This document shows positions 37,364 through 54,390 of a stretch of 64,000 nt of DNA, one piece after another. The notes below the pieces were generated by a model, which did no database searches, was not told the DNA's origin, and saw nothing but the letters and a program-made list of their open reading frames with translations. The position numbers and the translations under genes are program-made. Source of the DNA: an uncultured bacterium (GTDB taxonomy: Bacteria > Patescibacteriota > Minisyncoccia > UBA6257 > GWB1-50-10); contig OY970216.1 in NCBI GenBank assembly GCA_963713955.1, positions 8,075 through 72,074 of the forward strand, read 5' to 3'. Position 1 is the first letter of the stretch; the number at the start of each line of letters is the position of its first letter.

Positions 37364-38320
37364 CTATTGAAGCAATTTCCTCACAAAATTGCTTATATCA
37401 ATAAAGTTCTGATAAGCGCCTTTGACTTTCGCCAAAGACGAATTTACCAGATCTTTAATTGATACAACCTGAGAAGATCCTCCCGCCGCACCTGAGTCGG
37501 TGCTGGAACTTGTGGTCGCGGTGGATGTCGCTGACGACGAGTCGGATGTGGTGGTAGACGTCACCGTGGAAGAGGCTTCCAGAGCGGCAGTGCCCGTCGC
37601 AGAAGAAGTCGAGTCACTTCCCGGCGTGACTTCGGTGCTCGTGGAAGAAGTCGCCGTGAGGGGACTTACGTATCGTTCCAAGAATAAGTTGTAAGCCTCC
37701 CCATTCAAATCATTCGCTTCCTTTATGTCTTCCTTAGCCGCATCCAGCATGTCGCTGATCGTCTGCCGGTCCTTGGTCTTGAAGGTCAAAGAAGAAAGGT
37801 CCTTGGTTATATTCGTGAGCCTTTTTTGGGAAGTGTTTATTGCGGAAAATTCCTGCTGCACCAGAAGGAAATCCTGTACCTGACTGGTCAAGGGCAGATA
37901 GTCGGCATCCCTCCAGGTTTTAAAATCCTCGGCGACGGTTTTTATTCCGGCCAAATCAAGTGAAGAGGTACCGGTAATAAGTTGCCTCTCCGAATCAAAG
38001 TAAGAAAGATCTTGTTTCAACTGATCCGTTGAACTACTAACCCAGGCATCATAATCCGGATTCTTGGGAACTTGAAAAAGCTTAGATTCAAAATCCTTCA
38101 CCTCAGCGGTAGAGAGATCAAGAACTTGCTTGAAAGCGTTGATTCTCAAAGCTACGTCGTCCACGCTGCCTTCATCTTTGGCCGTGACGAGACTGTCCAG
38201 GGCGTCTTTCGCGTTCTGGAAAACCTGAGTCACCGGGCTCGCGTCGTCCGCCAATGCAACCCTCGAAAAGCCGAAACCCGCAACTATCAATATGAATGCC
38301 GATATTAAAACTTTTTTCAT
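37364..38320 (-). CDS. secreted protein with a Ser/Thr-rich C-terminus, encoded downstream of the ECF sigma and anti-sigma pair
   Basis: Signal peptide MKKVLISAFILIVAGFGFSRVALA; an S/T-rich low-complexity tail. Confidence 0.4.
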   Translation of the reverse strand: MKKVLISAFILIVAGFGFSRVALADDASPVTQVFQNAKDALDSLVTAKDEGSVDDVALRINAFKQVLDLSTAEVKDFESKLFQVPKNPDYDAWVSSSTDQLKQDLSYFDSERQLITGTSSLDLAGIKTVAEDFKTWRDADYLPLTSQVQDFLLVQQEFSAINTSQKRLTNITKDLSSLTFKTKDRQTISDMLDAAKEDIKEANDLNGEAYNLFLERYVSPLTATSSTSTEVTPGSDSTSSATGTAALEASSTVTSTTTSDSSSATSTATTSSSTDSGAAGGSSQVVSIKDLVNSSLAKVKGAYQNFIDISNFVRKLLQ

Positions 38321-38778
38321 TGCAAAACTTGGTTCAAGAGGTTATCTATCTTGGAACTTTGATCGGTCACCGTACTGCTCGTAATCTTTGCACTCTCCGA
38401 TTGCAATACATCCCCATTCAGATGGGGCGCCTTATTGCTCGTTATCGCGGAAATAGCATTGTTAATCGTCTGATTGACCTCGTTGTTATAGCTGACTTCC
38501 TGCAAGGTGATATTGATGTTCATGTCCGCCAGTTCTCTGTTCAGCGTCTCGGCACTTGCCAAAGGAAGAACGTTACCTCTCGTCGGTATGAAAACGTAAC
38601 CCAAAATCACGAGGAACACCAAGGCGAAAGAAGCCGCCCATGCGACAAGATAAGTCTTCACCGTGAAGTTCCTCTTCTTTTCAAAGGAAAAGATGAGGGC
38701 TTTGCTTCCCCGTAAAAAGGATTCATCGGGCTCTATGGTTCTAAACCTCTTTAGTTGTTTCTTTAAATCTTGACTCAT
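38317..38778 (-). CDS. putative anti-sigma factor (single-pass membrane protein)
   Basis: One central TM helix (TYLVAWAASFALVFLVILGYVFI). The gene overlaps the stop of the sigma factor gene. Confidence 0.4.
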   Translation of the reverse strand: MSQDLKKQLKRFRTIEPDESFLRGSKALIFSFEKKRNFTVKTYLVAWAASFALVFLVILGYVFIPTRGNVLPLASAETLNRELADMNINITLQEVSYNNEVNQTINNAISAITSNKAPHLNGDVLQSESAKITSSTVTDQSSKIDNLLNQVLQ

Positions 38779-39310
38779 GTTCGAGAACCGCCTTTTTGAG
38801 CTGCCGCAGGGCCCGGTGCTGAATCACCCGTACCGCACCCTCGCTCTTCCCGAGAGCGGCGCTTATTTCTTTGTTGGATAAATCTTCCACAAATTTCATA
38901 ATGAGGACATCTTGATAAGTTTGCTCCAACAAACCGATGCATTCCTTGACGACCTTGAGGTCGGAATCCGAATCCATTTTCTCTCCCAGAGCGGACTCGA
39001 CGGAAAAAACGTTTTCCGGGACCGTCTCAATATCGTAAGTTTGCTTCCGGGTTCTCCAATAATCTATGACCGAATTCCTCGCCGCCCGATAAAGGTAACT
39101 GGAAAAAGGTATTCCTCTCACGTCGAATGTTTCGATGTTTTTCCAAGCACTCAAAAACACTTCGTGAGTTAAATCCTCAGCTTCACCTCTCCTGCCGCCC
39201 AGTTTCAAAAAAACATACCGATATATTTTCGGCGCATACCGGCCATATATTTCCCCGAAAGCAGAAGTATCCCCTTTTTTTGCCTTCTTAAGGAGCTTAT
39301 CGTCCTCCAT
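38741..39310 (-). CDS. RNA polymerase sigma-70 family, ECF subfamily
   Basis: Region 2 (DLTHEVFLSAW) and region 4 (LSNKEISAALGKSEGAVRVIQHRALRQL). Confidence 0.8.
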   Translation of the reverse strand: MEDDKLLKKAKKGDTSAFGEIYGRYAPKIYRYVFLKLGGRRGEAEDLTHEVFLSAWKNIETFDVRGIPFSSYLYRAARNSVIDYWRTRKQTYDIETVPENVFSVESALGEKMDSDSDLKVVKECIGLLEQTYQDVLIMKFVEDLSNKEISAALGKSEGAVRVIQHRALRQLKKAVLEHESRFKETTKEV

Positions 39311-39458
39311 AGCTTAAAACGATGATTCCCATTTTTTGTTTCTCTTTTCCCTTCTCCAGGGTGTAACGCCCCGTAACAAACATCAAAAATATGGTAACAA
39401 AAACCACCATATTAGTAAACGAACCCACTAATCTCACATTACAAAGAGAGTTGGTAGA

Positions 39459-39475
39459 TGAGCGGGTAAGGGGAG
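39459..39475. other. attL-like 17-bp direct repeat (TGAGCGGGTAAGGGGAG), identical to the 3' end of tRNA-Gly at 54300-54316
   Basis: Exact 17-nt identity with 54300-54316; the flanks are partly similar (ATCAAAC versus TCGAACC). Confidence 0.55.
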
Positions 39476-39590
39476 ATCAAACGTCGCTCCAATGTTACGT
39501 CATCGGAGCTCCCACGAACCCAGCGGTTCGTGTGCTCCGCGACGGGAAAACTCCCGTTTTCCCGACCCCTTTCCCGTTCGACTCCCCGAG

Positions 39591-39919
39591 GTGAATATTG
39601 AGTATTTATACGGAGCAGTTAAGACCTATTTTACCCAAAATTTCTGATTTTGGATACCCCCGAGCCTAGTCAATCACCCCGTCAATCACGATTGACTACC
39701 CTCACCCCTCTTTCGTCCAGATTCCACCGGGCTTTCCTCGAAAACCTTGTCCCCGACAATACTCGCCTCCGCCCCTTACCGGTGCGTCGGCTCGTCTCCC
39801 GCAGAGGCCGCCCCCATGGGAAGGGTCGAAGGGAAGGAATGGGGGGCGGCCTCTGCTTCACGTCGCGCGTCAGAGATGCTCCCGAGGCCGGATTGGAAAA
39901 GGGAAGCAAAAAGGAGGAG
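39591..39919. repeat. left copy of the roughly 330-bp near-perfect inverted repeat (partner at 51477-51804)
   Basis: The reverse complement of 51477-51804 matches almost base for base (the identical 82-aa ORF artefact MDTPEPSQ... appears in both copies). It contains the nested motif TAGTCAATCACCCCGTCAATCACGATTGACTA. Confidence 0.8.
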
Positions 39920-39959
39920 CGGCTTATAAGGCAGTGCGTTTTTCGGTATCATTAAGGGA

Positions 39960-40793
39960 ATGCCCCGATACCGCAAGAGATTCGAGAGGAGCAAGGAGCC
40001 GCCCAAGAATTTTCGCATCCAGACGCGCGACTACGGCCTCCTCGCTGACATAGCTGGCTATGGGGTGCTCTCGACCGAGCAGATTTTCGCGCTTCACAAG
40101 GGAGGAGAAAGGAATCTTCGGCGGAGATTGGCCGCGCTCTATCACTTGGGATACATCGAGAGACCGAAAGCGCAAAAACTGCTTCCTCCCGGGAGCTTCA
40201 TCATCTATTCCCTCGGCAGAAAAGGAGCGGAGCTCCTTCACCGCGAGGAGTCCGTCGGGAAAAGACACCGCGAGGTTTCCTTCCCTCATCTTTCCCACGC
40301 TTTGATGATCTCGAGGTTCCGGTCCATCCTCTCCCTCGCCTTGAAGGGCGGAGACAAGAAGATCGAGAAATGGATGCAGGGCAGGGAGTTGTACGATACG
40401 CTCTCCAAGCGGGAGAAGACCGACCTCGTTCCGGATGCTTTCTTCACGGTCGAGAGCAAAGAATACAAGTGGCCCTTCTTCCTCGAAGCGGACATGGGTA
40501 CGATGACGCGGACGAAGATGCTCGAAAAATACCGGACGTACTGGCGGTGGTGGCGGGAGAGGCGGCACGAGCATACGCTCGGCATACAGAGATTCCGCGT
40601 CCTCACGATCGCTCCCTCGGAGACGAGAACGGAGAATCTCGTGAAAGCCGCGAAGGAGGCCGACGACCGGAGAACCGGCAGCGACATGTTTCTCTTTTTA
40701 TCGGAGACTGCATACTCCTTGAAGGAGCCGGAAGAAATACTGAAGTCCGTCTGGCTTTCCGCGAAGGGCGGAAGGCACGGAATACTCGAATAA
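39960..40793 (+). CDS. replication-relaxation family protein (Replic_Relax-like, N-terminal HTH)
   Basis: RDYGLLADIAGYGVLSTEQIFALH matches the N-terminal motif of plasmid replication-relaxation proteins; 277 aa. Confidence 0.5.
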   Translation: MPRYRKRFERSKEPPKNFRIQTRDYGLLADIAGYGVLSTEQIFALHKGGERNLRRRLAALYHLGYIERPKAQKLLPPGSFIIYSLGRKGAELLHREESVGKRHREVSFPHLSHALMISRFRSILSLALKGGDKKIEKWMQGRELYDTLSKREKTDLVPDAFFTVESKEYKWPFFLEADMGTMTRTKMLEKYRTYWRWWRERRHEHTLGIQRFRVLTIAPSETRTENLVKAAKEADDRRTGSDMFLFLSETAYSLKEPEEILKSVWLSAKGGRHGILE

Positions 40794-40817
40794 CCCGCTC
40801 CATCGGACGGGTGGCTT

Positions 40818-41010
40818 CGCAACGCATACTCGTCAAAAGACCTGCGGCTTTTGGCTCGAGACTGCGTTCGCCGCCCTTCCGCTCTCGCTCGTCTGCCTTC
40901 GTTCAATGCACTTTCTCTTAATCGCGCTTGGATTCCTCGCTTCCGTGAGCCGCAATCTCCGCAACGCATACTCGCTGAAAACCTCTGGTTTCCAGTTCGA
41001 GACTGCGTTC
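40818..41010. repeat. two copies of a roughly 52-bp imperfect palindromic unit (iteron/operator-like), 142 bp apart, in a 465-bp non-coding stretch
   Basis: CGCAACGCATACTCG-N23-CGAGACTGCGTTC at 40818-40869 and again at 40960-41010 (about 80 percent identical to each other; each unit is an inverted repeat). Confidence 0.5.
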
Positions 41011-41258
41011 AATTGCGTCTCCCGTCGCTTAAAGGAAAAACGCGGGAGGCTTTAGGCTCAACGCTAAGCCCCGCGCATTTTTCCTTTCGCGGGGAGCGCG
41101 ACGGAGCGCGCCCCCCGTGCGATTCTGCCCTTGCCCCACCACGCCCGTGCGCGGGCAAGAACGCTCCCCGAAACTAGCAAAGGTTGACATTCTTTGATGG
41201 GATTTTGTAACATCCTCCCGACATCGTCCTTTCGGGCGGTGTACGGTGAGGGGGACTC

Positions 41259-41516
41259 TCACGAGTCCCCCTTGGTCTTTTCCGAAGTTACATCATTATC
41301 TGAAACCATTATCAACCTTATAACCCAATCTGAAAGCCAGACGGCTCCGGCTTGCTTCCCAGACTCTAGAAGAAACTGGTTCTGGGACGCGACAAGCGTT
41401 TCTTGAGTAGCGTTGGCGGATGACGGAGGCGCCGCATCGGTGGGAGACGACGCAAGTGCGATCTGTATGATCCAGAGAAGCAGAAAACCGATTACAACTC
41501 TCAAAAATTTCCCCAT
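41259..41516 (-). CDS. small secreted or membrane protein (pilin-like?), hypothetical
   Basis: 85 aa; signal/TM MGKFLRVVIGFLLLWIIQIALA plus a second mildly hydrophobic stretch. Confidence 0.3.
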   Translation of the reverse strand: MGKFLRVVIGFLLLWIIQIALASSPTDAAPPSSANATQETLVASQNQFLLESGKQAGAVWLSDWVIRLIMVSDNDVTSEKTKGDS

Positions 41517-41836
41517 GACTTTGAAGAAAAATTGGGTTGCTCGACCTTTATATTGGTTTATTAAAGAACTCCCCAGAGATTAAAAATCCCCCTGTCGCTC
41601 TTCGGTGGTACTTCAACCTGCGACAGGGGGTGTTTTGGTGCTAATTTTTTCGCTCTGCGCCAGAAATTTCTATCGAATAAACACCCTTAAGTTATGGTAA
41701 TGATAACAAACCGGTGGTGAAAGTCAACTTCGCTCTCCTAAAAACTTTGAATGTAGTAAAATAACTCCATATCCCTCGTGCCTCTTTCTCGGCACGACAC
41801 AAGGTCGAGAGTTCTATAAAAACAGCATAAAAATAC

Positions 41837-42541
41837 ATGTGGACGTTCATCTTAATCGTCATCGTAGCCGTCGTCGCGTGGAATGTGTACAAGAAAAAGC
41901 AAGAAGAACAGCAGGAAAGCGGAGCCTACGAGACCGCCGACGTCCCTCCGGAGCGGAAACACTTGAAACGGATGTCTCTCTCGGAGAAGTGGCGCACGGT
42001 GAGTAGCTGGACGACCCTCGTTCCCGGAGCAGAGGGAAAGGGAGATGCGATCTTCAAAGCCGCGAAGGAAAGTATCGGGAAAGCCGCGGCGCCGAACCTC
42101 GTAGTCGAGGAGCGGCGGGTTAGCGTAAACGACCTCGCGAAGAGGTACGGCGAGCGGCGGCTGCTCGTGGTCGAGAACCGGAAAATCCTCGGCTACTACG
42201 CCTTCGTCTCCGTCATGGATTACGGCCATCAGCTTTCCGTCTCGTGGTATCTTATGTTTCAGGAAAACTGGTTCACGAAGTTCATGAAGACCGCGGTCAA
42301 GGGCGGCGTGATCGCCTTCCTCGCCAACTGGTTCGTCGTAATCATGGCGAGAATCTTCTACGCCGCGAGGCGGTGCACCATCCCCGAACTCATGAACATC
42401 TTCGACGCGGAGGAATTGACCGCCTACACGACGACCGTCCACCACGCCGTAACGGGGGCGGTCGAGGAGCTGATGGGCGGCATGAACATGGACTTCTCGA
42501 GGGTGGACACGAGGTCGCGGGGATTTTTAAATATCTCTTAG
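41837..42541 (+). CDS. membrane protein; its stop lies one base before the ATPase start, so it may be the membrane half of a split coupling protein
   Basis: N-terminal TM (MWTFILIVIVAVVAW) and an internal TM (VIAFLANWFVVIMARIF). It ends at 42541 and the ATPase starts at 42543. Confidence 0.4.
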   Translation: MWTFILIVIVAVVAWNVYKKKQEEQQESGAYETADVPPERKHLKRMSLSEKWRTVSSWTTLVPGAEGKGDAIFKAAKESIGKAAAPNLVVEERRVSVNDLAKRYGERRLLVVENRKILGYYAFVSVMDYGHQLSVSWYLMFQENWFTKFMKTAVKGGVIAFLANWFVVIMARIFYAARRCTIPELMNIFDAEELTAYTTTVHHAVTGAVEELMGGMNMDFSRVDTRSRGFLNIS

Positions 42542-42542
42542 C

Positions 42543-43925
42543 ATGGCGGAACCGCGCATCTTCCGCCGCGAACCCAAGAGCGACGAACTCGCGCTGGGTT
42601 ACGCGTGGGGCGAGGACCAAAAAGGCGACCTCTGGCAATTGAAGGGCGTCGCGCAGGAAGACCGCGCCACCCATTTTTACGTGATCGGCGCATCCGGCAC
42701 TGGCAAGACGAAGTTCTTGGAATACATGATCGGGCAGGACATAGCGAACGGGGCGGGATTCGGTGTGATTGATCCCCATGGGGACTTGATCGAAGCCGTG
42801 AAAGAGCGGCTCGCGCTTTCCGGAGACGATCTCGAAAGCCGCGTCGTCCTTATCGACCCCACAGACAAGAAGAAGGTCGTCTCCTTCAATCCCCTCGAAC
42901 GGCTGGACGGTGTCTCCCCGGCGGAGCAGTCCGCCGAGCTCACGCTCGCGTTTAAAAAGATTTGGGCGGACGCGTGGGGCGCACGGATGGAGGACATTCT
43001 CCGCAATTCTTTCATCGCCTTGATTGAGAACGACCTCACCCTCGCGGAACTGCCCCTCCTGTTCGCCGATGCCGGACTCCGCGCGAAGCTCACGGCGAAC
43101 CTGAAAAACGAGACCGCGAGGGATTTCTTCCACAAGTTCGATTCGTGGAGCAAGACCTTGAAGAACGAGTGGACGGAATCCACCTTGAACAAGGTGAACG
43201 CCTTTTTGTCCGACGAGCGGGTGCGGGACATGTTTGTCTCGCCCAAAAGTTCCTTCAATCTGCGGGACGCGATTGATGCGGGAAAGATATTGTTGGTGAA
43301 ACTGGATAAGGGAAGATTGAAGGGCGCAAGCGACCTTCTGGGTTCGCTCATCTTGACGAAGCTCCAGATGGCCGCCTTCTCCCGGACGGACGTGAGAGAA
43401 TCCGAGCGCAAGCCCTTTTACTTGTACATCGACGAGTTCCAGAACTTCGCGACCGAGAGCTTCACGGACGTCCTCACGGAGGCGAGGAAATACAAGCTGT
43501 CACTTACGCTCGTGAACCAGAACTTGGGGCAGCTTCCCTCCGAACTCCGGGCTTCCATCCTCACGAACTGCGGGATACAGGCGTGTTTCCGCCTTTCCCG
43601 CTTCGATGCGGAGCTTCTCGCCAAAGAAGCGTTCGGCGGGGTGGCCGACGCGACCCCGCAATGGGAAAAAAAATTCCAGTTGCTCCAAGCCCTCCCTAGG
43701 CAGGTGTGCCTCGTGAAGAACAAGGCGGCGGGCGGGATTGTTCTTATCCGCGTGCCGGACATAGGAGACGGGATGGACGAGCGGGAGCTTGAGGCCGCCT
43801 TGCGGGAAGCAGGGATCGGAGAGAAATACCTCCGCAAACGGGACGAGATTAACAAGGAGTATCACAGAAGGCACGAGGCCTTAACGAAAACCGACGAGCC
43901 GGACGGGTTCAAGGAGAAAAGATAG
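42543..43925 (+). CDS. P-loop ATPase, TraD/TrwB/VirD4-like or HerA/DUF87-like (candidate DNA translocase / coupling protein)
   Basis: Walker A VIGASGTGKT; DPHGD motif; Walker B YLYIDEFQNF. Paralog of 50122-51420. Confidence 0.55.
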   Translation: MAEPRIFRREPKSDELALGYAWGEDQKGDLWQLKGVAQEDRATHFYVIGASGTGKTKFLEYMIGQDIANGAGFGVIDPHGDLIEAVKERLALSGDDLESRVVLIDPTDKKKVVSFNPLERLDGVSPAEQSAELTLAFKKIWADAWGARMEDILRNSFIALIENDLTLAELPLLFADAGLRAKLTANLKNETARDFFHKFDSWSKTLKNEWTESTLNKVNAFLSDERVRDMFVSPKSSFNLRDAIDAGKILLVKLDKGRLKGASDLLGSLILTKLQMAAFSRTDVRESERKPFYLYIDEFQNFATESFTDVLTEARKYKLSLTLVNQNLGQLPSELRASILTNCGIQACFRLSRFDAELLAKEAFGGVADATPQWEKKFQLLQALPRQVCLVKNKAAGGIVLIRVPDIGDGMDERELEAALREAGIGEKYLRKRDEINKEYHRRHEALTKTDEPDGFKEKR

Positions 43926-44037: not shown

Positions 44038-44919
44038 ATGACGATGAATACTACATCGATCATGCCAATGACAGAAGGTCAAGAAAAGCAACTGAGTCGC
44101 GTCGTAATGGAGGACGAACTCTTTACACCGAAACCCACAAACGACGAAGCTCAGTGTCTTCTAAAGCACGGCAATATACTGCAAACGGCAGTCCGAATTT
44201 CCCGCAAGGAGATATTCGTCAAGTATCTCTACGCAGATGAGGAAAAATCGTCCGACTACACCTATCCCAAGGAATACAAGCGAAAATCAATCCGAGAGCA
44301 AATCGATATTCTTCTGGAGTGCTTCCCCGGATTGAACGCAACATGGGCTTTAATGAAGGGAGAAGCTTGGTACGACAGCCTGAAGAACTTGCCGGATTGG
44401 ATTGAAGGCCCGCTCGTCTATGTATGGTGGGAAATGTTCGGCAACTACAACGCCGCAACGGAACAGGTGCTCTCCGCTCTGGGGAAGAAGTACCAAAACT
44501 TCGTGAACTACCGGAACGGCCAGCTTGGACCAGAATACCTGCAACAGTCGAAAAAGACGACCGGTCTCGAAGCAAAGATTAAGAAGGACCAGCCTGGCGA
44601 TCTCATCATCGTCCCGAGTCAAGCCGGATTGCGCTGGAGGGGAAAATCTGTCCGTCGCGGCAGAGTCCTCTATGATCAGAACGAATTCGGTTCGGGAAGC
44701 GTCGCCGAAGGATGCCGAGTGCTGACCCATAATCGGTTCGTCCAATGGGAGCAACTGCACGTTGATTGCGGAGGAGACGAATACGCTCCTGAGGCCGATC
44801 GGGTTTTCTCGCACGCTCCGCACCTCTACTTCCTCGATAGCGAGATCGGGTTCGTCACGTACTGGATTGACTATGCCCATGGGCACTTCGGTTCGGCTTC
44901 CTCCCTTCTCCCGCAGTAA
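44038..44919 (+). CDS. DGR target (variable) protein; the C-terminal approximately 43 aa are encoded by the variable repeat
   Basis: The 3' end of the ORF (44787-44917) is the VR homologous to the TR. The gene has a strong RBS and promoter and is followed by a hairpin terminator. No signal peptide is evident. Confidence 0.7.
   Translation: MTMNTTSIMPMTEGQEKQLSRVVMEDELFTPKPTNDEAQCLLKHGNILQTAVRISRKEIFVKYLYADEEKSSDYTYPKEYKRKSIREQIDILLECFPGLNATWALMKGEAWYDSLKNLPDWIEGPLVYVWWEMFGNYNAATEQVLSALGKKYQNFVNYRNGQLGPEYLQQSKKTTGLEAKIKKDQPGDLIIVPSQAGLRWRGKSVRRGRVLYDQNEFGSGSVAEGCRVLTHNRFVQWEQLHVDCGGDEYAPEADRVFSHAPHLYFLDSEIGFVTYWIDYAHGHFGSASSLLPQ
44787..44917 (+). repeat. DGR variable repeat (VR)
   Basis: 131-bp alignment with TR 45299-45430: 17 mismatches, all at positions where the TR has A. 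The final approximately 30 nt are identical and GC-rich (IMH-like), ending at the target stop codon. Confidence 0.85.
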
Positions 44920-44992
44920 TCGAACATTGCACCTCGGACACTTGAACCTTTTGATGTCTTGTCCTTCGTTCCTTTCGTCCGCGTTATTTTTG

Positions 44993-45034
44993 AGAGGTTA
45001 TCCACACCATTGTGGGTAACCTCTTTATTTTTTA
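44993..45034 (+). terminator. hairpin plus T-run downstream of the VR/target gene
   Basis: AGAGGTTATCCACA-CCAT-TGTGGGTAACCTCT (14-bp stem with 1 mismatch) then TTTATTTTTTA. The stem contains a perfect TTATCCACA. Confidence 0.55.
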
Positions 45035-45298
45035 TAATCATGAATGAGACTAGGTTCATGAATGGCCGTCCACGGATTGCCGTCACCGAACTCCCTCTTC
45101 AATGAAGAGAAAAACAACCGGAATCTTAGCGACCACGGTTTCTAAGAGCGCGTTGTATTGAGGAGATTACTGCTTGTCCCCGTCTAGCGCAGGTTCCCGT
45201 TCGGGATGCTGCCGAATAAAATTCAGGATTGAGAGGATATAAGCTCCCCTTGAGCGGTAAACCTCGATTTCCAGTGATACGGACGGATGGGGGCAATG

Positions 45299-45430
45299 AT
45301 CCTGAGGCCGATCAAGTTTTCTCGCACGCTCCGAACCTCAACTTCAACGATAGCAAGATCAAGTTCAACACGAACTGGATTGACAATGCCAATGAGAACT
45401 TCGGTTCGGCTTCCTCCCTTCTCCCGAAGT
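45299..45430 (+). repeat. DGR template repeat (TR)
   Basis: Adenine-rich AAC/AAT/AAG-containing copy of the VR; the ORF-track entries 45229-45483(+) and 45223-45474(-) merely overlap it and are not believed to be genes. Confidence 0.85.
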
Positions 45431-45446
45431 CGCTCCTCAAGGAGGC

Positions 45447-45477
45447 AGAATGCCCGCGATTTATACGCGGGCATTCT
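45447..45477. terminator. strong hairpin between the TR and the avd stop (bidirectional terminator or TR-RNA 3' structure)
   Basis: AGAATGCCCGCG-ATTTATA-CGCGGGCATTCT, a 12-bp perfect stem. Confidence 0.5.
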
Positions 45478-45479
45478 CC

Positions 45480-45830
45480 TTAATTTTCTTTAGCCGATCT
45501 TATCCATCCGCCTAACATCCGGCCGATTTCATCCACGGAAGATTCGAGCGCCACATACTTTTTATTGTCTATGGTTTTCACTTCCTTCATGAGACGAAGA
45601 AAAACGCGCAGGAGATTAAGCTTGACGCTCGTCTTGTCTAAAACCGGCACTTTCTCCGATTTATAGAGTTTGCTGGCCGTAAGTATCCCCTCAAGAATTT
45701 CGAGTGTTAGTTCTTCCGATCTCTGCCAGATGGCGTACCGGTCTTGCTTGGGAACAATTGTGCGATAACCATAAAATGTTTTGTATAAGTCATAAGTTTT
45801 CTTGAATATGGGTATGTCAAAATCATCCAT
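45480..45830 (-). CDS. avd: Avd-like accessory variability determinant (four-helix-bundle, 23S rRNA-IVS protein family)
   Basis: 116 aa; C-terminal EIGRMLGGWIRSAKEN closely resembles the Bordetella phage bAvd C-terminus EVGRILGSWIARVNRK; it lies between the TR and the RT. Confidence 0.7.
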   Translation of the reverse strand: MDDFDIPIFKKTYDLYKTFYGYRTIVPKQDRYAIWQRSEELTLEILEGILTASKLYKSEKVPVLDKTSVKLNLLRVFLRLMKEVKTIDNKKYVALESSVDEIGRMLGGWIRSAKEN

Positions 45831-45844
45831 AAGTTTTACGCCAC

Positions 45845-46870
45845 ATGAAAACCTGCAAAAACATTTTTGAAAAGATAATCTCGCCAGAAAATCTTTTTTT
45901 GGCTTGGGACGCGTTCAAAGGCGACAAGCGGAATAAACCTGACGTTCTCCGGTTTGAATGGAATCTGGAACAGAACATTTTCCGGTTGCACGGAGATTTG
46001 AAAGATAGAACCTACCAGCATGGCCCCTATGCGAGCTTTTACATCAACGATCCGAAGCAGCGCCACATTCATAAGGCGACGGTTCGAGACAGGATTCTGC
46101 ATCACGCGGTTTTCTCGGTTATAAATCCAGTCTTCGAGCCGACCTTCATTCCGACTTCTTTTTCTTGTCGCATCGGATACGGCACTCATAAGGGTGTCGA
46201 GACTCTGGAAGAGATGATAAGAAGGGTAAGTAGGAATAATACGGCTCCCTGTTTTGTCTTGAAATGCGATGTTCAGAAATTTTTTGCGAGCGTAAGCCAC
46301 GAAATTCTGCTCTCCATTCTGGAAAAGAGAATTAAAGACGATGATGCAATGTGGCTTATGGGAAGCATCGTTAAAAGCTATGAGAGCGTGTCCAGGCGAG
46401 GCATCCCCATAGGGAATTTGACCTCCCAGCTCTTTGCCAACGTCTACATGAACGAACTTGATCAGTTTATGAAGCACGTGTTGAAGGTAAAATATTACAT
46501 TCGCTACACCGACGACTTCGCCGTAGTCGCTGGAGATAAAAAATATTTAGAAGAACTCCTGCCGCTTATATCCAAATTTCTTGAAAATAAACTCGCTCTC
46601 AAATTACATCCTAATAAAACCATATTTTTATCAATATGTCAAGGCGTAGATTTCCTCGGATACGTGATTTTCCCAAAACATAGACTTATCCGGTTACAGA
46701 CAAAGCATCGGATGTTTAAGAAATTGGAAAAACTGATGGAAGAATACAAAGCTGGAAATATCACCAAATTAAACTTCGAGCAGTCTCTCCAGTCTTATCT
46801 GGGTGTCTTATCTCATGCGGATACCCACACGATACGGGAAGAACTGTTGAACAAGTTCTGGATTTCTTAA
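45845..46870 (+). CDS. DGR-type reverse transcriptase
   Basis: RT motifs including IPIGNLTSQLFANVY (the DGR-specific I/LGxxxSQ in place of the group II QGxxxSP) and YIRYTDDFAV (YxDD); 341 aa with no maturase or endonuclease domains. Confidence 0.9.
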   Translation: MKTCKNIFEKIISPENLFLAWDAFKGDKRNKPDVLRFEWNLEQNIFRLHGDLKDRTYQHGPYASFYINDPKQRHIHKATVRDRILHHAVFSVINPVFEPTFIPTSFSCRIGYGTHKGVETLEEMIRRVSRNNTAPCFVLKCDVQKFFASVSHEILLSILEKRIKDDDAMWLMGSIVKSYESVSRRGIPIGNLTSQLFANVYMNELDQFMKHVLKVKYYIRYTDDFAVVAGDKKYLEELLPLISKFLENKLALKLHPNKTIFLSICQGVDFLGYVIFPKHRLIRLQTKHRMFKKLEKLMEEYKAGNITKLNFEQSLQSYLGVLSHADTHTIREELLNKFWIS

Positions 46871-48734: not shown

Positions 48735-48845
48735 AAATTTTTAAAGAAAAAAGCTAACCGGCGGGTTCGACGTTTAGCTTTGTGCAGAAACACAAAGCCC
48801 CCAGCCAGTGATCCCTTGCGAGACCCATACCAGTTTCCCGATATG

Positions 48846-48895
48846 ACGATTGCGCGTGCTCTGACTAGGAGCTTTCTATGCGCAATCGTTTTTTA
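48846..48895 (+). terminator. plus-strand hairpin plus T6 in a 380-bp ORF-free gap between two minus-strand genes (candidate sRNA 3' end)
   Basis: ACGATTGCGC-N24-GCGCAATCGT followed by TTTTTT. Confidence 0.3.
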
Positions 48896-49112
48896 AACCC
48901 TGCCGCAGGCTTTCCTACGGGTTAGGTCTCATATGAAATTGTATGGAGTCAATAGTAACACAACGGCAGGAAAAGGCAAGATTAAAAACGCCCGATTTTA
49001 TATGAAATATCAGGCGGTTGTTACCATAGTCGGCTTGCTCCTTGTATATAAGTTTGCTATACTTTAGTTAACGTAGCAACGAAATGAACAAGCTTTACGA
49101 TATAGTTCAGTA

Positions 49113-50121: not shown

Positions 50122-51420
50122 GTGCGCCCCTTTTTGTATTTTCTGATGGACGACATCCTCCCCATCGGCAGGACGACCTCCCATTCGAGCGGGCTTGTCT
50201 TCGGAATCCGGACGAGAGACCGGCGACACCACATGTATGTCGTGGGGCAGACCGGCACGGGAAAATCGACTTTGCTCAAGAATATGGCGATAACGGACAT
50301 CCGGGGCGGGCGCGGCTGCGCCGTGATAGACCCGCACGGGGAACTCGTCGAGGACATCCTTAACTTCATTCCTTCTAAGAGGGCGAACGAAGTCGTGTAT
50401 TTCAATCCCTCGGATGTCGAGAATCCCATCGGCTTGAACATTCTCGAAGCGAGGGACGAGGAGGAAAAGCAACTGGTCGCCTCGTCCTTGATCTCGGTAT
50501 TCAAACACCTATGGAAGGGGTTCTGGGGGCCTCGGCTGGAACACGTCTTCCATAACGCCATATTAGCTCTTATGGATACGCCGGGGAGCACCCTCCTCGG
50601 CGTTTATCGTATGCTCGCGGACGACGATTACCGCCGCCTCGTCGTTTCCCACGCGAAAGACCCCATAGTTAGGTTGTTCTGGGAAAAGGACTTCGACGAA
50701 TATCCGCCTCAATTCCGCAAAGAGGTCGCCTCTCCTATCCAGAACAAGATCGGGCAATTGCTCACGAACACGCCCTTGCGGAATATCGTGGGACAGACGA
50801 CGAGCACGATTGATCTCAAATACATCATGGATAACCGGAGAGTCCTTCTCGTGAACCTCGCGAAAGGCAGAATCGGAGAAGACAAGGCGAACCTTCTCGG
50901 GTCCGTCCTCGTTACCAAGCTCTATTTGGCCGCTTTGGAGAGGCAGGCGATCCCGGAGGAGGAACGCAAGGACTTCTACCTCTACGTTGACGAGTTCCAG
51001 AACTTCTCGACGGACGTGTTTCCTTCGATACTCTCGGAGGCGAGGAAATACCGGCTGAACCTCATCTTGGCTCACCAGTATCTCCACCAGTTGACCGACG
51101 AGGTGCGGCACGCCGTCTTCGGAAACGTGGGCACTTTGGTCGCTTTCCGCGTGGGGAGCATAGACGCGGAGGAACTCGCAAGAGAGTTCCTGCCCTCGTT
51201 CGGGAGGAGCGACCTCGAATGCGAGGACAACTACCACACTTATATTAAATTGATGATCGACGGCAAGCGTTCGCTTCCCTTCTCGGCGGAAACGCTCCCG
51301 CCCCTCTGCCTTATGGGCGACGAGGCGAAGAAAGACATTCTGATTCAGGTTTCACGGGAGCGTTTCGCTTCAAAAAGATGCGAGATCGAATCCAAAATCG
51401 AAAAATGGATTGGCAGGTGA
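50122..51420 (+). CDS. P-loop ATPase, paralog of 42543-43925 (TraD/VirD4- or HerA-like)
   Basis: VVGQTGTGKST, DPHGE, YLYVDEFQNF; roughly 45 percent identical to the first ATPase. Probably a GTG start. Confidence 0.55.
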   Translation: MRPFLYFLMDDILPIGRTTSHSSGLVFGIRTRDRRHHMYVVGQTGTGKSTLLKNMAITDIRGGRGCAVIDPHGELVEDILNFIPSKRANEVVYFNPSDVENPIGLNILEARDEEEKQLVASSLISVFKHLWKGFWGPRLEHVFHNAILALMDTPGSTLLGVYRMLADDDYRRLVVSHAKDPIVRLFWEKDFDEYPPQFRKEVASPIQNKIGQLLTNTPLRNIVGQTTSTIDLKYIMDNRRVLLVNLAKGRIGEDKANLLGSVLVTKLYLAALERQAIPEEERKDFYLYVDEFQNFSTDVFPSILSEARKYRLNLILAHQYLHQLTDEVRHAVFGNVGTLVAFRVGSIDAEELAREFLPSFGRSDLECEDNYHTYIKLMIDGKRSLPFSAETLPPLCLMGDEAKKDILIQVSRERFASKRCEIESKIEKWIGR

Positions 51421-51476: not shown

Positions 51477-51804
51477 TCCTCCCTTTTTCCTTCCCTTTTC
51501 CTTCCGGCCTCGGGAGCATCTCTGACGCGCGACGTGAAGCAGAGGCCGCCCCCCATTCCTTCCCTTCGACCCTTCCCATGGGGGCGGCCTCTGCGGGAGA
51601 CGAGCCGACGCACCGGTAAGGGGCGGAGGCGAGTATTGTCGGGGACAAGGTTTTCGAGGAAAGCCCGGTGGAATCTGGACGAAAGAGGGGTGAGGGTAGT
51701 CAATCGTGATTGACGGGGTGATTGACTAGGCTCGGGGGTATCCAAAATCAGAAATTTTGGGTAAAATAGGTCTTAACTGCTCCGTATAAATACTCAAGTT
51801 TCAC
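51477..51804. repeat. right copy of the roughly 330-bp inverted repeat
   Basis: Reverse complement of 39591-39919. Confidence 0.8.
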
Positions 51805-51986
51805 ACAAAGGTTATTTTCCCCAAAATTTTCACGGGCTTCGCGGAGCGAAGCATAAGGTTTGATGGGGCTAAATACGATGCGACGGTTTTTTAGAGAGAG
51901 GTTCGAGAGTTAAGGGTATAACACTTGCCCCACACCACCCGTGCGCGTGTTATGAATCTTGCTGATTTGATAATCAGCTACTCCCT

Positions 51987-52526
51987 TTAGATCACTAACT
52001 TCCCGTTATTTGCGACATATGCGGATAAGGTTATCAGATTCGTAATTGCGATGACGAAATTCGTTTTGTGGAGAGTTTGGCCGACACCCAAATTATCCAA
52101 ATCTTTTGCGTGTTGCTTCTCGTGGAAATAATAGCCATAGAGCCATTTCTTTATCACGTCCTCGCCAGTTTCAGATTTACTATTAATAATCATTTTTATG
52201 GTGGGTTCTTTCATTAGTGATGCGTAGATATCCTTACATTTTTGAAGATTATTAATGATCTTCTGATCTGTAGTATTGGCGATAAGCAAATCGCAGATAT
52301 CCGGCAGATACACACCATCTTTCTTAAGAGTAAATTTCCTCAAGTCCAAAAGCATTGAACGCAAATCTTCCTCATCGAAGCCCGTGGTTTCTTGCTTGAG
52401 AGGTTGTCCTGCTTCAAAGTTTAATTGATAGCCGACTTTTTTGGTTTCCCTCGTAAACCTTGCGTTCTTCACTTTTTCAACGATAGAAATAAACTGCTCG
52501 ACCTTCTCCTTATTTGACGGGTTCAT
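51987..52526 (-). CDS. hypothetical protein (element cargo)
   Basis: 179 aa; AT-rich gene with no recognisable motif. Confidence 0.35.
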   Translation of the reverse strand: MNPSNKEKVEQFISIVEKVKNARFTRETKKVGYQLNFEAGQPLKQETTGFDEEDLRSMLLDLRKFTLKKDGVYLPDICDLLIANTTDQKIINNLQKCKDIYASLMKEPTIKMIINSKSETGEDVIKKWLYGYYFHEKQHAKDLDNLGVGQTLHKTNFVIAITNLITLSAYVANNGKLVI

Positions 52527-52532
52527 GTCTAA

Positions 52533-52760
52533 TTATAAAAGGTCTTTAGGTCTTATACCTAACGCTTTTGCAATCTTTTCTATGTTCTTGAGTGTTGGGT
52601 TTCTTTCGCCGCGCTCTATCTGACTGATATAGGTTGAATGAACGCCCAAACTTCTCGCAATATCTCCTTGCGATAATTGCTTCTTGAGGCGGATGGCCTT
52701 GATCTGCTTTCTAACTCTTGTGGATATGTCCGTGTTCGCCATTGTTTTCATTATTATCAT
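52533..52760 (-). CDS. XRE-family (Cro/cI-type) HTH transcriptional regulator
   Basis: LSQGDIARSLGVHSTYISQIERGERNPTLKNIEKIAKALG. Confidence 0.75.
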   Translation of the reverse strand: MIIMKTMANTDISTRVRKQIKAIRLKKQLSQGDIARSLGVHSTYISQIERGERNPTLKNIEKIAKALGIRPKDLL

Positions 52761-52812
52761 AACAGTTGCCGTGCTATTGCTCTATGGAACGCAAATGCTC
52801 TATAATAGAACC

Positions 52813-54390
52813 ATGTCTACTTACTTCCTCTACGCCCGCAAATCGACCGACGTTGAAGACAAGCAAGTCCGGTCGATTGACGATCAGCTTTCAGTGCTTC
52901 GTACCCTTGCAAAAGACGAGGGACTACACATCGTTTCCGAGTTTGTGGAGAAGCAGTCCGCCAAGATGCCCGGTCGCCCCGTATTCAATAACATGCTTTC
53001 CCGCATTGAGAAAGGAGAGGCGCAAGGCATCGTCTGTTGGAAACTAGATCGGCTTGCCAGAAATCCGGCGGACGGCGGCACGATACAATGGATGCTCCAG
53101 CGGGGCATCATCCAACATATCCAAACCTACGAAAAGAGTTATAAGACAGCCGACAACACGCTATTGATGAGCGTGGAGTTCGGGATGGCGAACCAGTTCA
53201 TTCTTGACTTGGCTGCGAACACCAAGCGCGGCCTCTATGAGAAAGTGAAGCGTGGCGAATATCCTTCGCTTGCCCCTATCGGATACTTGAACGACCGGGT
53301 GAGGAAAACCGTCGTTGTGGACAGGGCGACGGCGAAGATCGTCCGTGCCGCGTTTGAACTCTATGCCGAAGGCAACTCACGATTGGAAGACATATCCGCA
53401 TTTTTTGCCAAACATCACATCTATTCCGAGAACGGCAAACCTTTGAAACGCGACCGGATAACCTACATCCTCTCGAATCCCTTTTATATCGGTTTCTTCC
53501 GCTACGCAAAAGAGCTTCACGAGGGAAAGCACAAGCCCCTCATTTCCAAGACTCTTTTCGACAAGGTGCAAGCCGTCTTAAAAGGGAGGGGCAGACCTCA
53601 TCACAAATTGCAGAACGAGCCGAAACCTCTTTGCGGACTGCTCTACTGCGCCGAGTGCGGATGCGCGATCACCGGAGAGGAAAAGGTGAAGCACCAGAAG
53701 AACGGCAACGTCCACACCTACCGCTATTATCGTTGCACGAAAAAGAAAGGTGCCTGTTCCCAGCCAAACGTTCGAGAGGAAAACCTTACTTTGCAACTAT
53801 CCGAGGCTATCAGACCATTCGCCCTTCCGTACGAATGGGCGGCGGAGCTTTCAAAGAAAGCTGATATGGATGAGCAAGTTACCCTCACATCTTCCGCCGC
53901 CCAGAGCCAAACGATACGGGACGAGATAACGGCCGTTTCCCAAAAGATCAAGCGACTTCACGCGATGTATCTAGACCAAGACATTGAACGGGAAAGCTTC
54001 CTTGAGGAGAAGGCGAATCTGCTTTCCCAGAAGAAGTCGCTCACGGAGAAAATGGCTGATGTTTCAAAGGGGGTGATCGCTTGGCTCGAACCGATGCGGG
54101 AATGGATAAAAGACGCGTCAAATCTGAACGATTTCGACGAAACCGCCTCTCTTTCCCTCACTAAGTCGTATACTCTTAAAATTTTCGGCTCGAACCTCTC
54201 TCTAAAAAACCGTCGCATCGTATTTAGCCCCATCAAACCTTATGCTTCGCTCCGCGAAGCCCGTGAAAATTTTGGGGAAAATAACCTTTGTGTGAAACTT
54301 GAGCGGGTAAGGGGAGTCGAACCCCTCTCATCAGCTTGGAAAGCTGAGGTAATGCCGATATACGATACCCGCCAACATCTTTTATCTTAA
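52813..54390 (+). CDS. large serine recombinase (resolvase catalytic domain, recombinase domain, zinc ribbon)
   Basis: YARKSTDVEDKQVRSIDDQ (catalytic Ser), APIGYLNDR, CAECGC...C zinc ribbon. Start set at MSTYFLY. The last approximately 30 codons are antisense to tRNA-Gly. Confidence 0.8.
   Translation: MSTYFLYARKSTDVEDKQVRSIDDQLSVLRTLAKDEGLHIVSEFVEKQSAKMPGRPVFNNMLSRIEKGEAQGIVCWKLDRLARNPADGGTIQWMLQRGIIQHIQTYEKSYKTADNTLLMSVEFGMANQFILDLAANTKRGLYEKVKRGEYPSLAPIGYLNDRVRKTVVVDRATAKIVRAAFELYAEGNSRLEDISAFFAKHHIYSENGKPLKRDRITYILSNPFYIGFFRYAKELHEGKHKPLISKTLFDKVQAVLKGRGRPHHKLQNEPKPLCGLLYCAECGCAITGEEKVKHQKNGNVHTYRYYRCTKKKGACSQPNVREENLTLQLSEAIRPFALPYEWAAELSKKADMDEQVTLTSSAAQSQTIRDEITAVSQKIKRLHAMYLDQDIERESFLEEKANLLSQKKSLTEKMADVSKGVIAWLEPMREWIKDASNLNDFDETASLSLTKSYTLKIFGSNLSLKNRRIVFSPIKPYASLREARENFGENNLCVKLERVRGVEPLSSAWKAEVMPIYDTRQHLLS
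54302..54372 (-). tRNA. tRNA-Gly (anticodon TCC)
   Basis: GCGGGTA-TC-GTA-TATCGGCAT-TAC-C-TCAGC-TTTCCAA-GCTGA-TGAG-AGGGGTTCGACTCCCCT-TACCCGC-T. The acceptor, anticodon and T stems are perfect; the D-stem has 3 bp. Confidence 0.7.

Follow-up and report, generated by a model that had tools for sequence, protein, structure and literature searches.

A MOBC relaxase gene of a tRNA-integrated Patescibacteria element is followed by private paired hairpins and a diverged copy of a conserved palindromic module

The window analyzed here is a 64-kb stretch of a Patescibacteria chromosome, and all positions are given in its numbering. The gene at 39960-40793 encodes a relaxase-class protein and belongs to an integrative mobilizable element (IME) of about 14.8 kb at the 3' end of a tRNA-Gly gene. 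A sequence-only reading had proposed the 465 nt that follow this gene (40794-41258) as a candidate origin, with two palindromic units that looked like iterons or operators beside a replication initiator. Comparison with related loci shows that the conserved cis element in the flagged stretch is the 95 nt on its 3' side, not the paired hairpins. The features of the element are collected in Table 1.

The relaxase assignment rests on a Pfam match to PF13814 Replic_Relax (E 2.7e-24, 86.7 bits vs a cut-off of 25.3, residues 28-205), which bears out the title 'replication-relaxation-type' given to the gene from the sequence alone. The label 'RepL-like' was wrong, since RepL is a different family. 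In CONJscan, PF13814 stands for the MobC relaxase superfamily (PMC5357655). An AlphaFold2 model of the protein (pLDDT 88.6, pTM 0.88) was compared with known structures. Approximately 85 N-terminal residues superpose on MarR-family winged helix-turn-helix proteins with a probability of 1.00. In the PDB, the whole protein matches FokI best, with an XisH-like nuclease also among the matches; both matches are weak (E 3e-3, probability 0.91 and 0.72). The modeled protein shows a winged-helix domain and a PD-(D/E)XK-type nuclease core. MOBC relaxases are PD-(D/E)XK, restriction-endonuclease-like enzymes (PMC12857230). D159, E176, D178 and K190 are invariant in 28 homologues, and we infer catalytic roles for them.

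Nearly all sources of relaxase homologues are Patescibacteria/Parcubacteria. The best non-self match is 61% identical, and identity to the nearest relatives is 56-61%. No match was obtained by tblastn against 72,556 plasmids or by phmmer against PDB sequences. Judged by these searches, the protein is very distant from the plasmid MOBC proteins. It is a relaxase-class protein, neither RepL-like nor a replication initiator.

The relaxase gene is the first in a series that continues with the gene for a conserved 234-aa protein, a VirD4/TrwB-type type IV coupling protein (T4CP) gene, a complete diversity-generating retroelement (DGR), several unknown genes with a LOOT RNA, and a second T4CP-like ATPase gene. 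The element was recognized as an IME by a serine recombinase, attachment repeats at a tRNA gene, a relaxase and two T4CP genes, together with the lack of VirB4 and pore genes. Profile searches of the Pfam/NCBIfam type found no type IV secretion system (T4SS) family among the remaining open reading frames (ORFs) of the element. Since no mating-pore genes were found in it, the element has the look of a mobilizable rather than a self-transmissible one. The 17-nt sequence TGAGCGGGTAAGGGGAG, which copies the 3' end of tRNA-Gly(tcc), is present at both ends of the element. No direct repeat of a tRNA 3' end (≥12 nt) was found at the far end of related elements, and the 17-nt repeat is specific to the window.

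Table 1. Features of the element and of the region after its relaxase gene (strand "." where none is assigned).
Feature	Position	Strand	Evidence
Candidate left attachment site, 17-nt direct repeat TGAGCGGGTAAGGGGAG	39459..39475	+	exact repeat of 54300-54316
I1L, left arm of 328-nt inverted repeat	39591..39918	+	97% complementary to 51477-51804
Conserved I1 core: TATTTTACC-AAAAT..CTGA.TTTG, then two 12-nt direct repeats and an inverted copy	39624..39703	+	fold z = -6.4
GC-rich hairpin, 15-bp perfect arms, 26-nt loop, 96 nt past I1 core	39801..39856	+	
Replic_Relax (PF13814), MOBC-class relaxase gene, 277 aa	39960..40793	+	Pfam
Hairpin unit 1, 52 nt: CGCAACGCATACTCG (15-nt arm), 24-nt spacer, CGAGACTGCGTTC (13-nt arm)	40818..40869	.	
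Hairpin unit 2, 51 nt: arms as in unit 1, 23-nt spacer, different central stem-loop	40960..41010	.	
Third long hairpin, 22-nt arms, 86% complementary, abuts class-B module	41031..41087	.	-21 kcal/mol, z = -3.8
Class-B module, diverged copy, core CTTGCCCCAC-N5-CCGTGCGCG in stem, closed by GGGGAGCG/CGCTCCCC	41080..41174	+	covariance model R1, 31 bits, E ~7e-6
Sigma-70-like promoter match: TTGACA, 18-nt spacer, TAACAT	41184..41213	+	consensus match only, 2 found vs 1.1 expected
Intrinsic-terminator-like hairpin and T-rich tail	41247..41284	+	z = -4.2
85-aa ORF, hydrophobic N-terminus, stop codon in terminator loop	41259..41516	-	called as gene in public assemblies
Conserved 234-aa protein gene, directly after relaxase gene in most relatives	41837..42541	+	tblastn synteny
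VirD4/TrwB-type coupling protein gene (T4CP1)	42543..43925	+	Pfam and NCBIfam
Second coupling-protein-like ATPase gene (T4CP2)	50122..51420	+	
I1R, inverted copy of I1L, after T4CP2 gene	51477..51804	-	
Class-A module, full conserved palindromic element, stems P1, P2, P3	51885..51992	+	covariance model R1, 102.7 bits
Large serine recombinase gene	52693..54390	+	Pfam Resolvase, Recombinase and Zn_ribbon_recom; called as a gene
tRNA-Gly(tcc), integration target and right attachment site	54301..54372	-	

The flagged stretch is non-coding. It holds only short ORFs that overlap on both strands, such as 40851-41177 (+, 108 aa, TTG) and 41029-41262 (-, 77 aa, GTG). The comparison set consisted of 80 related loci and some further ones (L114, L121, L122 and L124 among them); L-numbers such as L012 or L116 denote these loci. 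None of the ORFs within 40794-41258 matched a Pfam or NCBIfam family, and tblastn found no counterpart of them in the 80 loci. Coding potential was rejected on this ground, in agreement with the earlier statement that the 465 bp hold no credible ORF. A search of 39300-41900 with Rfam 15 gave no gathering-level match, the best sub-threshold E values being 0.57 and 3.4 at a permissive setting. The stretch falls into three parts: three imperfect hairpins (40794-41090), the class-B module (41080-41174), and a promoter-like match with a terminator hairpin (41184-41284).

The two palindromic units are as the sequence-only reading described them, imperfect and 142 nt apart from start to start; the first begins 25 nt past the relaxase stop codon. 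Both units contain, in register, the same 15-mer CGCAACGCATACTCG and the same 14-mer TCGAGACTGCGTTC. Among 1000 dinucleotide shuffles of the region, one had an exact direct repeat as long as 14 nt and none had one of 15 nt, so that the shared 15-mer lies beyond all of them. The arms are identical at 28/28 positions, mismatched dinucleotides and unpaired positions included, vs 14/24 in the centers (Fisher p = 1.2e-4). The centers differ, yet each pairs with itself, through CAAAAG/CTTTTG in one unit and CTG-AAACC/GGTTT-CAG in the other. Because the arms are perfectly conserved down to their mismatches, a specific ligand is suggested. Folded as single-stranded DNA, the units reach -16.4 and -14.1 kcal/mol (z = -3.3 and -4.3), and the opposite strand gives a similar stability. 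Neither strand is consistently preferred, the better fold being that of the + strand for unit 1 and that of the - strand for unit 2. Repetition is confined to the units of ~52 nt, and their flanks are unrelated.

At the 3' end of the stretch, the perfect 9-bp hairpin reported earlier exists, but at 41250-41271 rather than 41249-41274. It is followed by TTGGTCTTTT and is thus terminator-like on the + strand. As in an intrinsic terminator, a stem of 9-12 bp is followed by GTCTTTTCC on this strand, and a terminator is predicted here. There is no other terminator-like site on the + strand between 40793 and 41247. GC content is 0.56-0.59 throughout the region, which has no AT-rich stretch, and the GC-skew check that had been suggested is uninformative at this scale. 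The identical hairpin region occurs on other public contigs from three further sample accessions, which are otherwise near-identical to the window. The region is therefore not an assembly artefact.

Within the relatives compared, the 52-nt units are private to the window's element. Paired hairpins occur in none of about 50 related elements, and neither the 52-nt unit nor anything alignable to 40794-41090 has a match in the 80 related loci. Repeat scans of the gaps in L004, L005, L013, L017, L018, L060, L115 and L116 found no such units. Elsewhere in the window the half-sites of the units do not occur above chance; they are found only in the two units. A metagenome scan for AACGCANNCTCG-N15-30-CGAGNNTGCGTT returned 30 matches, about the number that a rough estimate gives by chance for 20 specified bases. 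All 30 are unrelated palindromes, and none has a relaxase or T4CP gene in its vicinity. The same hairpin pattern gave 0 matches in a viral collection.

Most relatives also have little space for the units. From the relaxase stop codon to the gene of the 234-aa protein there are 1043 nt in the window, 16-106 nt in 19/26 syntenic relatives, and 6-82 nt in L114, L121, L122 and L124. Long gaps in relatives hold other content, for example two cargo genes in L012. The sequence-only reading had suggested looking for the same units on related contigs. Related loci were searched and homologous elements lack the units, which is an outcome that this reading had itself named as refuting it. Because the paired units are absent from relatives, they are neither iterons nor the origin of the family. 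An origin of transfer (oriT) was taken to be a cis element kept at an equivalent position by the relaxase gene, and the paired units are not kept in this manner. L007 has a perfect 58-nt tandem duplication (1795-1910) that begins at the relaxase stop codon.

Two other elements are kept in relatives. One is I1, a block whose left arm ends 42 nt before the relaxase start codon and whose interior (39598-39893) is identical in both arms. The 12-nt direct repeats of its core lie at 39665-39688 (GTCAATCAC twice) and their inverted copy at 39690-39698 (GATTGAC). An nhmmer profile of the outer ~110 nt of I1 had matches in 23 loci, at 300-420 nt upstream of the relaxase gene. I1 (39591-39918) is thus conserved in position, at a constant distance in these 23 loci, as expected of an oriT. 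The repeat sequence varies between elements and changes together within each; in L114 and L116 it is a perfect tandem of ACCTAGT(C/T)ATTC. In at least 13 of 22 loci there is an above-chance inverted repeat at 96-170 nt from the I1 core. An inverted second copy of I1 is present in L002, L003, L007, L016, L031, L036, L039, L116 and L124.

Long inverted repeats bracket the whole module from the relaxase to the second T4CP gene in the window and in L002, L003, L007, L036, L039, L116 and L124. They measure 328 nt (97% identical) in the window, 351 nt in L002 and 508 nt in L116. A flip of the interior between the I1 arms would leave the relaxase gene beside an identical arm. The bracketing repeats are possibly two inverted oriT copies, or else the borders of an invertible segment.

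The other conserved element is a module of ~100 nt, found in a full form (class A) and a short form (class B). Its core, CTTGCCCCAC-N5-6-CC(C)GTGCGCG, lies within a stem of compensating sequence, whose variants include ATAACAC/GTGTTAT, ATAATGC/GCATTAT, ATAACCC/GGGTTAT, ATACTGC/GCAGTAT and CTTGCCC/GGGCAAG. The module also has a further hairpin and is closed by GGGGAG/CTCCC(T/C) pairing. The covariance model placed the full form outside I1, ~140-250 nt from its outer end, in the window, L002, L006, L007, L016, L116 (two copies) and L124. Further copies lie in L018, ~490 nt after the T4CP2 gene, and in L028, where the module and the relaxase gene overlap at the 3' end of the gene. The short form follows the relaxase stop codon immediately in L012, L013, L036 and L115, and at a distance of ~300 nt in L123. 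Altogether the module is found beside the relaxase gene or I1 in at least 13 loci, so that the two copies in the window (41080-41174 and 51885-51992) have the positional conservation expected of an oriT.

The stems of the module are maintained by paired changes. In 13 sequences, 90.6% of the cells are paired. Double changes were counted at 14 pairs vs 7.2 +/- 1.8 in shuffles (0/500 reach the observed value), and slid controls gave at most 8. The numbers of G-T and A-C cells are 16 and 15. Since an RNA is expected to show an excess of G-U, the lack of a G-T excess over A-C argues for a DNA palindrome or hairpin rather than an RNA, and the module is probably a DNA element. It corresponds to no Rfam family. 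In viral contigs the core pattern had 3 matches, all of them high-GC chance matches that the covariance model did not recognize. Because these elements target tRNAs, a tRNA-like reading of the class-A module was also considered; it was rejected, as ARAGORN and Rfam were negative and a cloverleaf could not be fitted.

I1 and class A/B look, from these comparisons, like better oriT candidates than the paired hairpins. The neighboring gene encodes a DNA-processing protein of a mobile element, and for this reason a cis-acting site was a fair guess. The proposed oriT is plausible for the diverged copy of the conserved module at 41080-41174, but not for the paired hairpins. We favor a composite reading, with a probability of roughly 0.55, in which the relaxase would act through I1 and class A/B, the cis elements also retained in relatives. 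The winged-helix domain would bind the 12-nt direct and inverted repeats of I1 upstream of the gene. Nicking would take place at a hairpin, either the GC-rich one ~100 nt from the I1 repeats or the conserved class A/B loop. The paired hairpins would be dispensable for relaxase action, an element-specific addition that is either accessory or part of the 3' untranslated region (UTR). In the first case they would be auxiliary hairpin-forming or protein-binding sites, in the second a structured 3' untranslated end of the relaxase mRNA, which would extend as far as 41250-41284. The second option fits the lack of a terminator-like site between the stop codon and 41247.

Several points weigh against this composite reading. 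At ≤61% protein identity a loss of non-coding similarity is expected, so that only the missing space in relatives argues against a conserved role of the hairpins. In L013, too, a long inverted repeat, unrelated to those here, separates the relaxase stop codon from the class-B module. The ligand of the units could be the element's own relaxosome, that is, an element-specific oriT function. Covariation was counted on an alignment fitted to the model, which favors structure, and the parity of G-T and A-C rests on ~30 cells. The class-B copy at 41080-41174 is low-scoring (31 bits) and is without stem P3. Class A/B could serve the serine recombinase as an accessory site, and class A mostly adjoins a copy of the 3' end of the recombinase gene. 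The class-B module of L013, however, has no such copy nearby.

If the units do serve the relaxosome of this element, then the paired hairpins, the third hairpin and class B together could be the oriT of this element, with the relaxase or an accessory protein binding the units and a nick in or beside a hairpin. This corresponds to the oriT version of the sequence-only reading, and we consider it quite unlikely. Many oriTs share what is seen here, namely several long inverted repeats and a repeated unit, and the stretch lies between the relaxase gene, which it follows directly, and the coupling-protein operon. The perfect arms with their internal mismatches and the contact of the hairpins with the conserved class-B module are also consistent with such a site, and the oriTs of MOBC relaxases pair repeats with a distant nic site (PMC12857230). 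However, no relative has the units, and in most relatives the gap is too short to hold them. The repeats conserved across the family lie upstream, in I1, and the units, two copies only and 142 bp apart, are dissimilar to them. In a bolder proposal, I1 and class A/B are the transfer origin of Patescibacteria-specific, tRNA-integrating MOBC elements driven by serine recombinases, the CTTGCCCCAC-N5-6-CCGTGCGCG loop, which is conserved, is the nic site of the restriction-endonuclease-like relaxase, and the paired hairpins are private extra relaxosome sites. It is put forward only tentatively, as possible rather than probable. The hairpins might instead act as RNA, in a structured 3' UTR of the relaxase mRNA that provides exonuclease barriers or signals for processing or attenuation. 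The nearness of unit 1 to the stop codon suits this role, as do 41250-41284 as the sole canonical terminator, the stability of the stems and the pairing kept by divergent centers. The inconsistent strand preference does not suit it, nor does the perfect conservation of unpaired arm positions, which pairing alone would not require. With no Rfam match and no units in relatives, a purely RNA role seems unlikely.

The units might also be remnants like repetitive extragenic palindromes (REP) or miniature inverted-repeat transposable elements (MITE), which inserted two times into an intergenic hot spot that tolerates them, with no function for the island. Their unrelated flanks and the use of this site for cargo in relatives would agree with such an origin. 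It is nevertheless very unlikely, since there is no further copy in the window, the metagenome and viral scans brought no related copies, and a neutral copy would not hold 28/28 arm positions beside a center diverged by 42%. Hardly tenable is the idea that the units are the iterons or operators of an origin of vegetative replication (oriV) served by a neighboring replication initiator. It draws on the family name 'replication-relaxation' and on the direct repetition of a unit. The neighbor is a MOBC relaxase, and no Rep family is found among the ORFs of the element. Iterons are recognized as three or more regularly spaced direct repeats, and here there are two palindromic copies 142 bp apart. 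The GC content noted above leaves no AT-rich stretch, and the units do not recur in relatives. Integron attC sites were considered as well. These are imperfect palindromes of ~50-60 nt with conserved ends (AAC...GTT) and a variable center that still pairs, and in these features the units resemble them. The attC consensus is RYYYAAC/GTTRRRY, with the triplets at the inner R-box end. In the units AAC/GTT lies at the outer end of the stem and the flanks misfit the consensus, there is no integron integrase or cassette ORF, and the units are 142 bp apart. Inspection against the consensus thus led us to reject attC-like sites, on the position of AAC/GTT and the lack of an integron context. The paired hairpins are of an ordinary kind, structured non-coding DNA beside the relaxase gene of an IME.

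At the far end of the element, the recombinase gene and tRNA-Gly converge, and their 3' ends overlap. Such an overlap is also seen in L013, L008, L014, L020, L006 and L028, with tRNA-Thr, Val, Leu, Val, Ser and Leu, respectively. A recombinase gene thus ends inside the 3' end of an opposite-strand tRNA in seven loci and with five tRNA types. This points to tRNA-targeting serine integrases. Targeting of tRNA genes is probably unusual for the large serine recombinase class.

A second, perfect inverted repeat of 115 nt (100% identical) joins 51793-51907 and 54189-54303. It duplicates the 3' end of the serine recombinase gene beside the class-A module and the outer end of I1. Counterparts of this repeat lie in L006 (2353-2512/6428-6587) and L116 (16148-16310/20488-20650). 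At 51796-51812, on the minus strand, the recombinase-side arm of the tRNA junction meets the I1 arm in the sequence GTGTGAAACT|TGAG|TATTTATACGG, and this junction looks like an internal attP-type site within the integrated element.

Downstream of the class-B module, the 85-aa ORF belongs to no known family and has no homologue in the related loci (tblastn, 80 loci). The promoter-like site at 41184-41213 runs into the terminator at 41250-41284, antisense to the 3' end of this ORF. A bidirectional terminator-like hairpin (41582-41636) and a minus-strand promoter-like site (41727-41700) follow. Together, 41184-41730 may be a small regulatory unit, a pair of a small RNA (sRNA) and a small protein.

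The DGR is complete and is carried as island cargo at 44038-46870. It consists of a variable region (VR, 44787-44917), a template region (TR, 45300-45430), bAvd (45480-45830, - strand) and a reverse transcriptase (RT, 45845-46870). All VR/TR mismatches fall on TR adenines (17/17). An independent 20.8-kb assembly, L117, is otherwise 99.94% identical to the window, and the differences are confined to 44801-44885 in the VR, except for one single-nucleotide polymorphism at 39243. Since nearly all differences lie in the VR, the DGR appears to be active in the population. The LOOT RNA (Rfam RF03000, 83.3 bits vs a gathering score of 46.4) lies inside the element at 48810-48928 on the - strand, between the unknown genes and the second coupling-protein gene. 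A tRNA-Arg(tct) gene is located directly upstream of the second coupling-protein gene in L039 (3131-3203) and L017 (12979-13052), and L039 has a second tRNA-Arg(tct) of identical type at 5062-5134, just past the inverted I1 arm. Just outside the left end of the island is an extracytoplasmic function (ECF)-type sigma-70 gene (38741-39310, - strand; region 38317-39310). It is followed by an overlapping 153-aa ORF, for which an anti-sigma factor is a guess with no family match.

The relaxase shares several features with the MOBC relaxases pAD1 TraX and CloDF13 MobC, namely PF13814, an N-terminal winged helix, a PD-(D/E)XK-type core and a nearby gene for a VirD4-type coupling protein. TraX, the prototype of the class, has an N-terminal winged helix and binds five direct repeats 70-120 bp from nic; a covalent intermediate was not detectable (PMC12857230). 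The short direct repeats of I1, ~100 nt from a large hairpin, resemble this binding site (direct repeats 70-120 bp from nic, PMC12857230). Unlike pAD1 TraX and CloDF13 MobC, the window's relaxase is very distant in sequence, comes from a Patescibacteria host, belongs to a chromosomal, tRNA-integrated element, and lies next to a candidate oriT block that is duplicated in inverted orientation.

One class of streptococcal IMEs, class 8, unites a relaxase of the MobC type with a VirD4 coupling protein and a serine integrase (PMC5357655). The window's element is like it in combining these three in a compact integrated element that has no mating-pore genes. It differs from class 8 in its two coupling-protein paralogues, its DGR cargo and a tRNA 3'-end target overlapped by the recombinase gene. 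Its nested inverted repeats (328 and 115 nt) and palindromic module are likewise unmentioned in the accessible text of PMC5357655. Within Patescibacteria, a 2025 survey gives MOBC as the commonest relaxase class (58/109), with 39 relaxase genes close to t4cp (Microb Genom 2025, PMC12102498). It considers most T4SS probably not conjugative and relaxases rare (PMC12102498). The survey is a gene-level census in which the term 'oriT' does not occur, and the passages retrieved describe no attachment sites or conserved non-coding elements (PMC12102498). In the literature searched, the combination of nested inverted repeats, class A/B and recombinase-tRNA overlap appears to be undescribed.

These loci reveal a recurrent architecture in Patescibacteria: a repeat block, a MOBC relaxase gene, a membrane-protein gene, a coupling-protein gene, cargo (here a DGR), a second coupling-protein gene, the inverted block with the palindromic module, and a recombinase gene that abuts a tRNA. 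Conserved cis elements beside the commonest relaxase class of the phylum provide specific candidate fragments for nicking and mobilization. MOBC is mechanistically the least understood relaxase class, with no covalent intermediate seen (PMC12857230). If I1 and class A/B are indeed the transfer origin, they would offer a second oriT architecture for the MOBC class. They would also be the first concrete oriT model for conjugative transfer in the candidate phyla radiation (CPR), where the role of T4SS and coupling proteins is debated.

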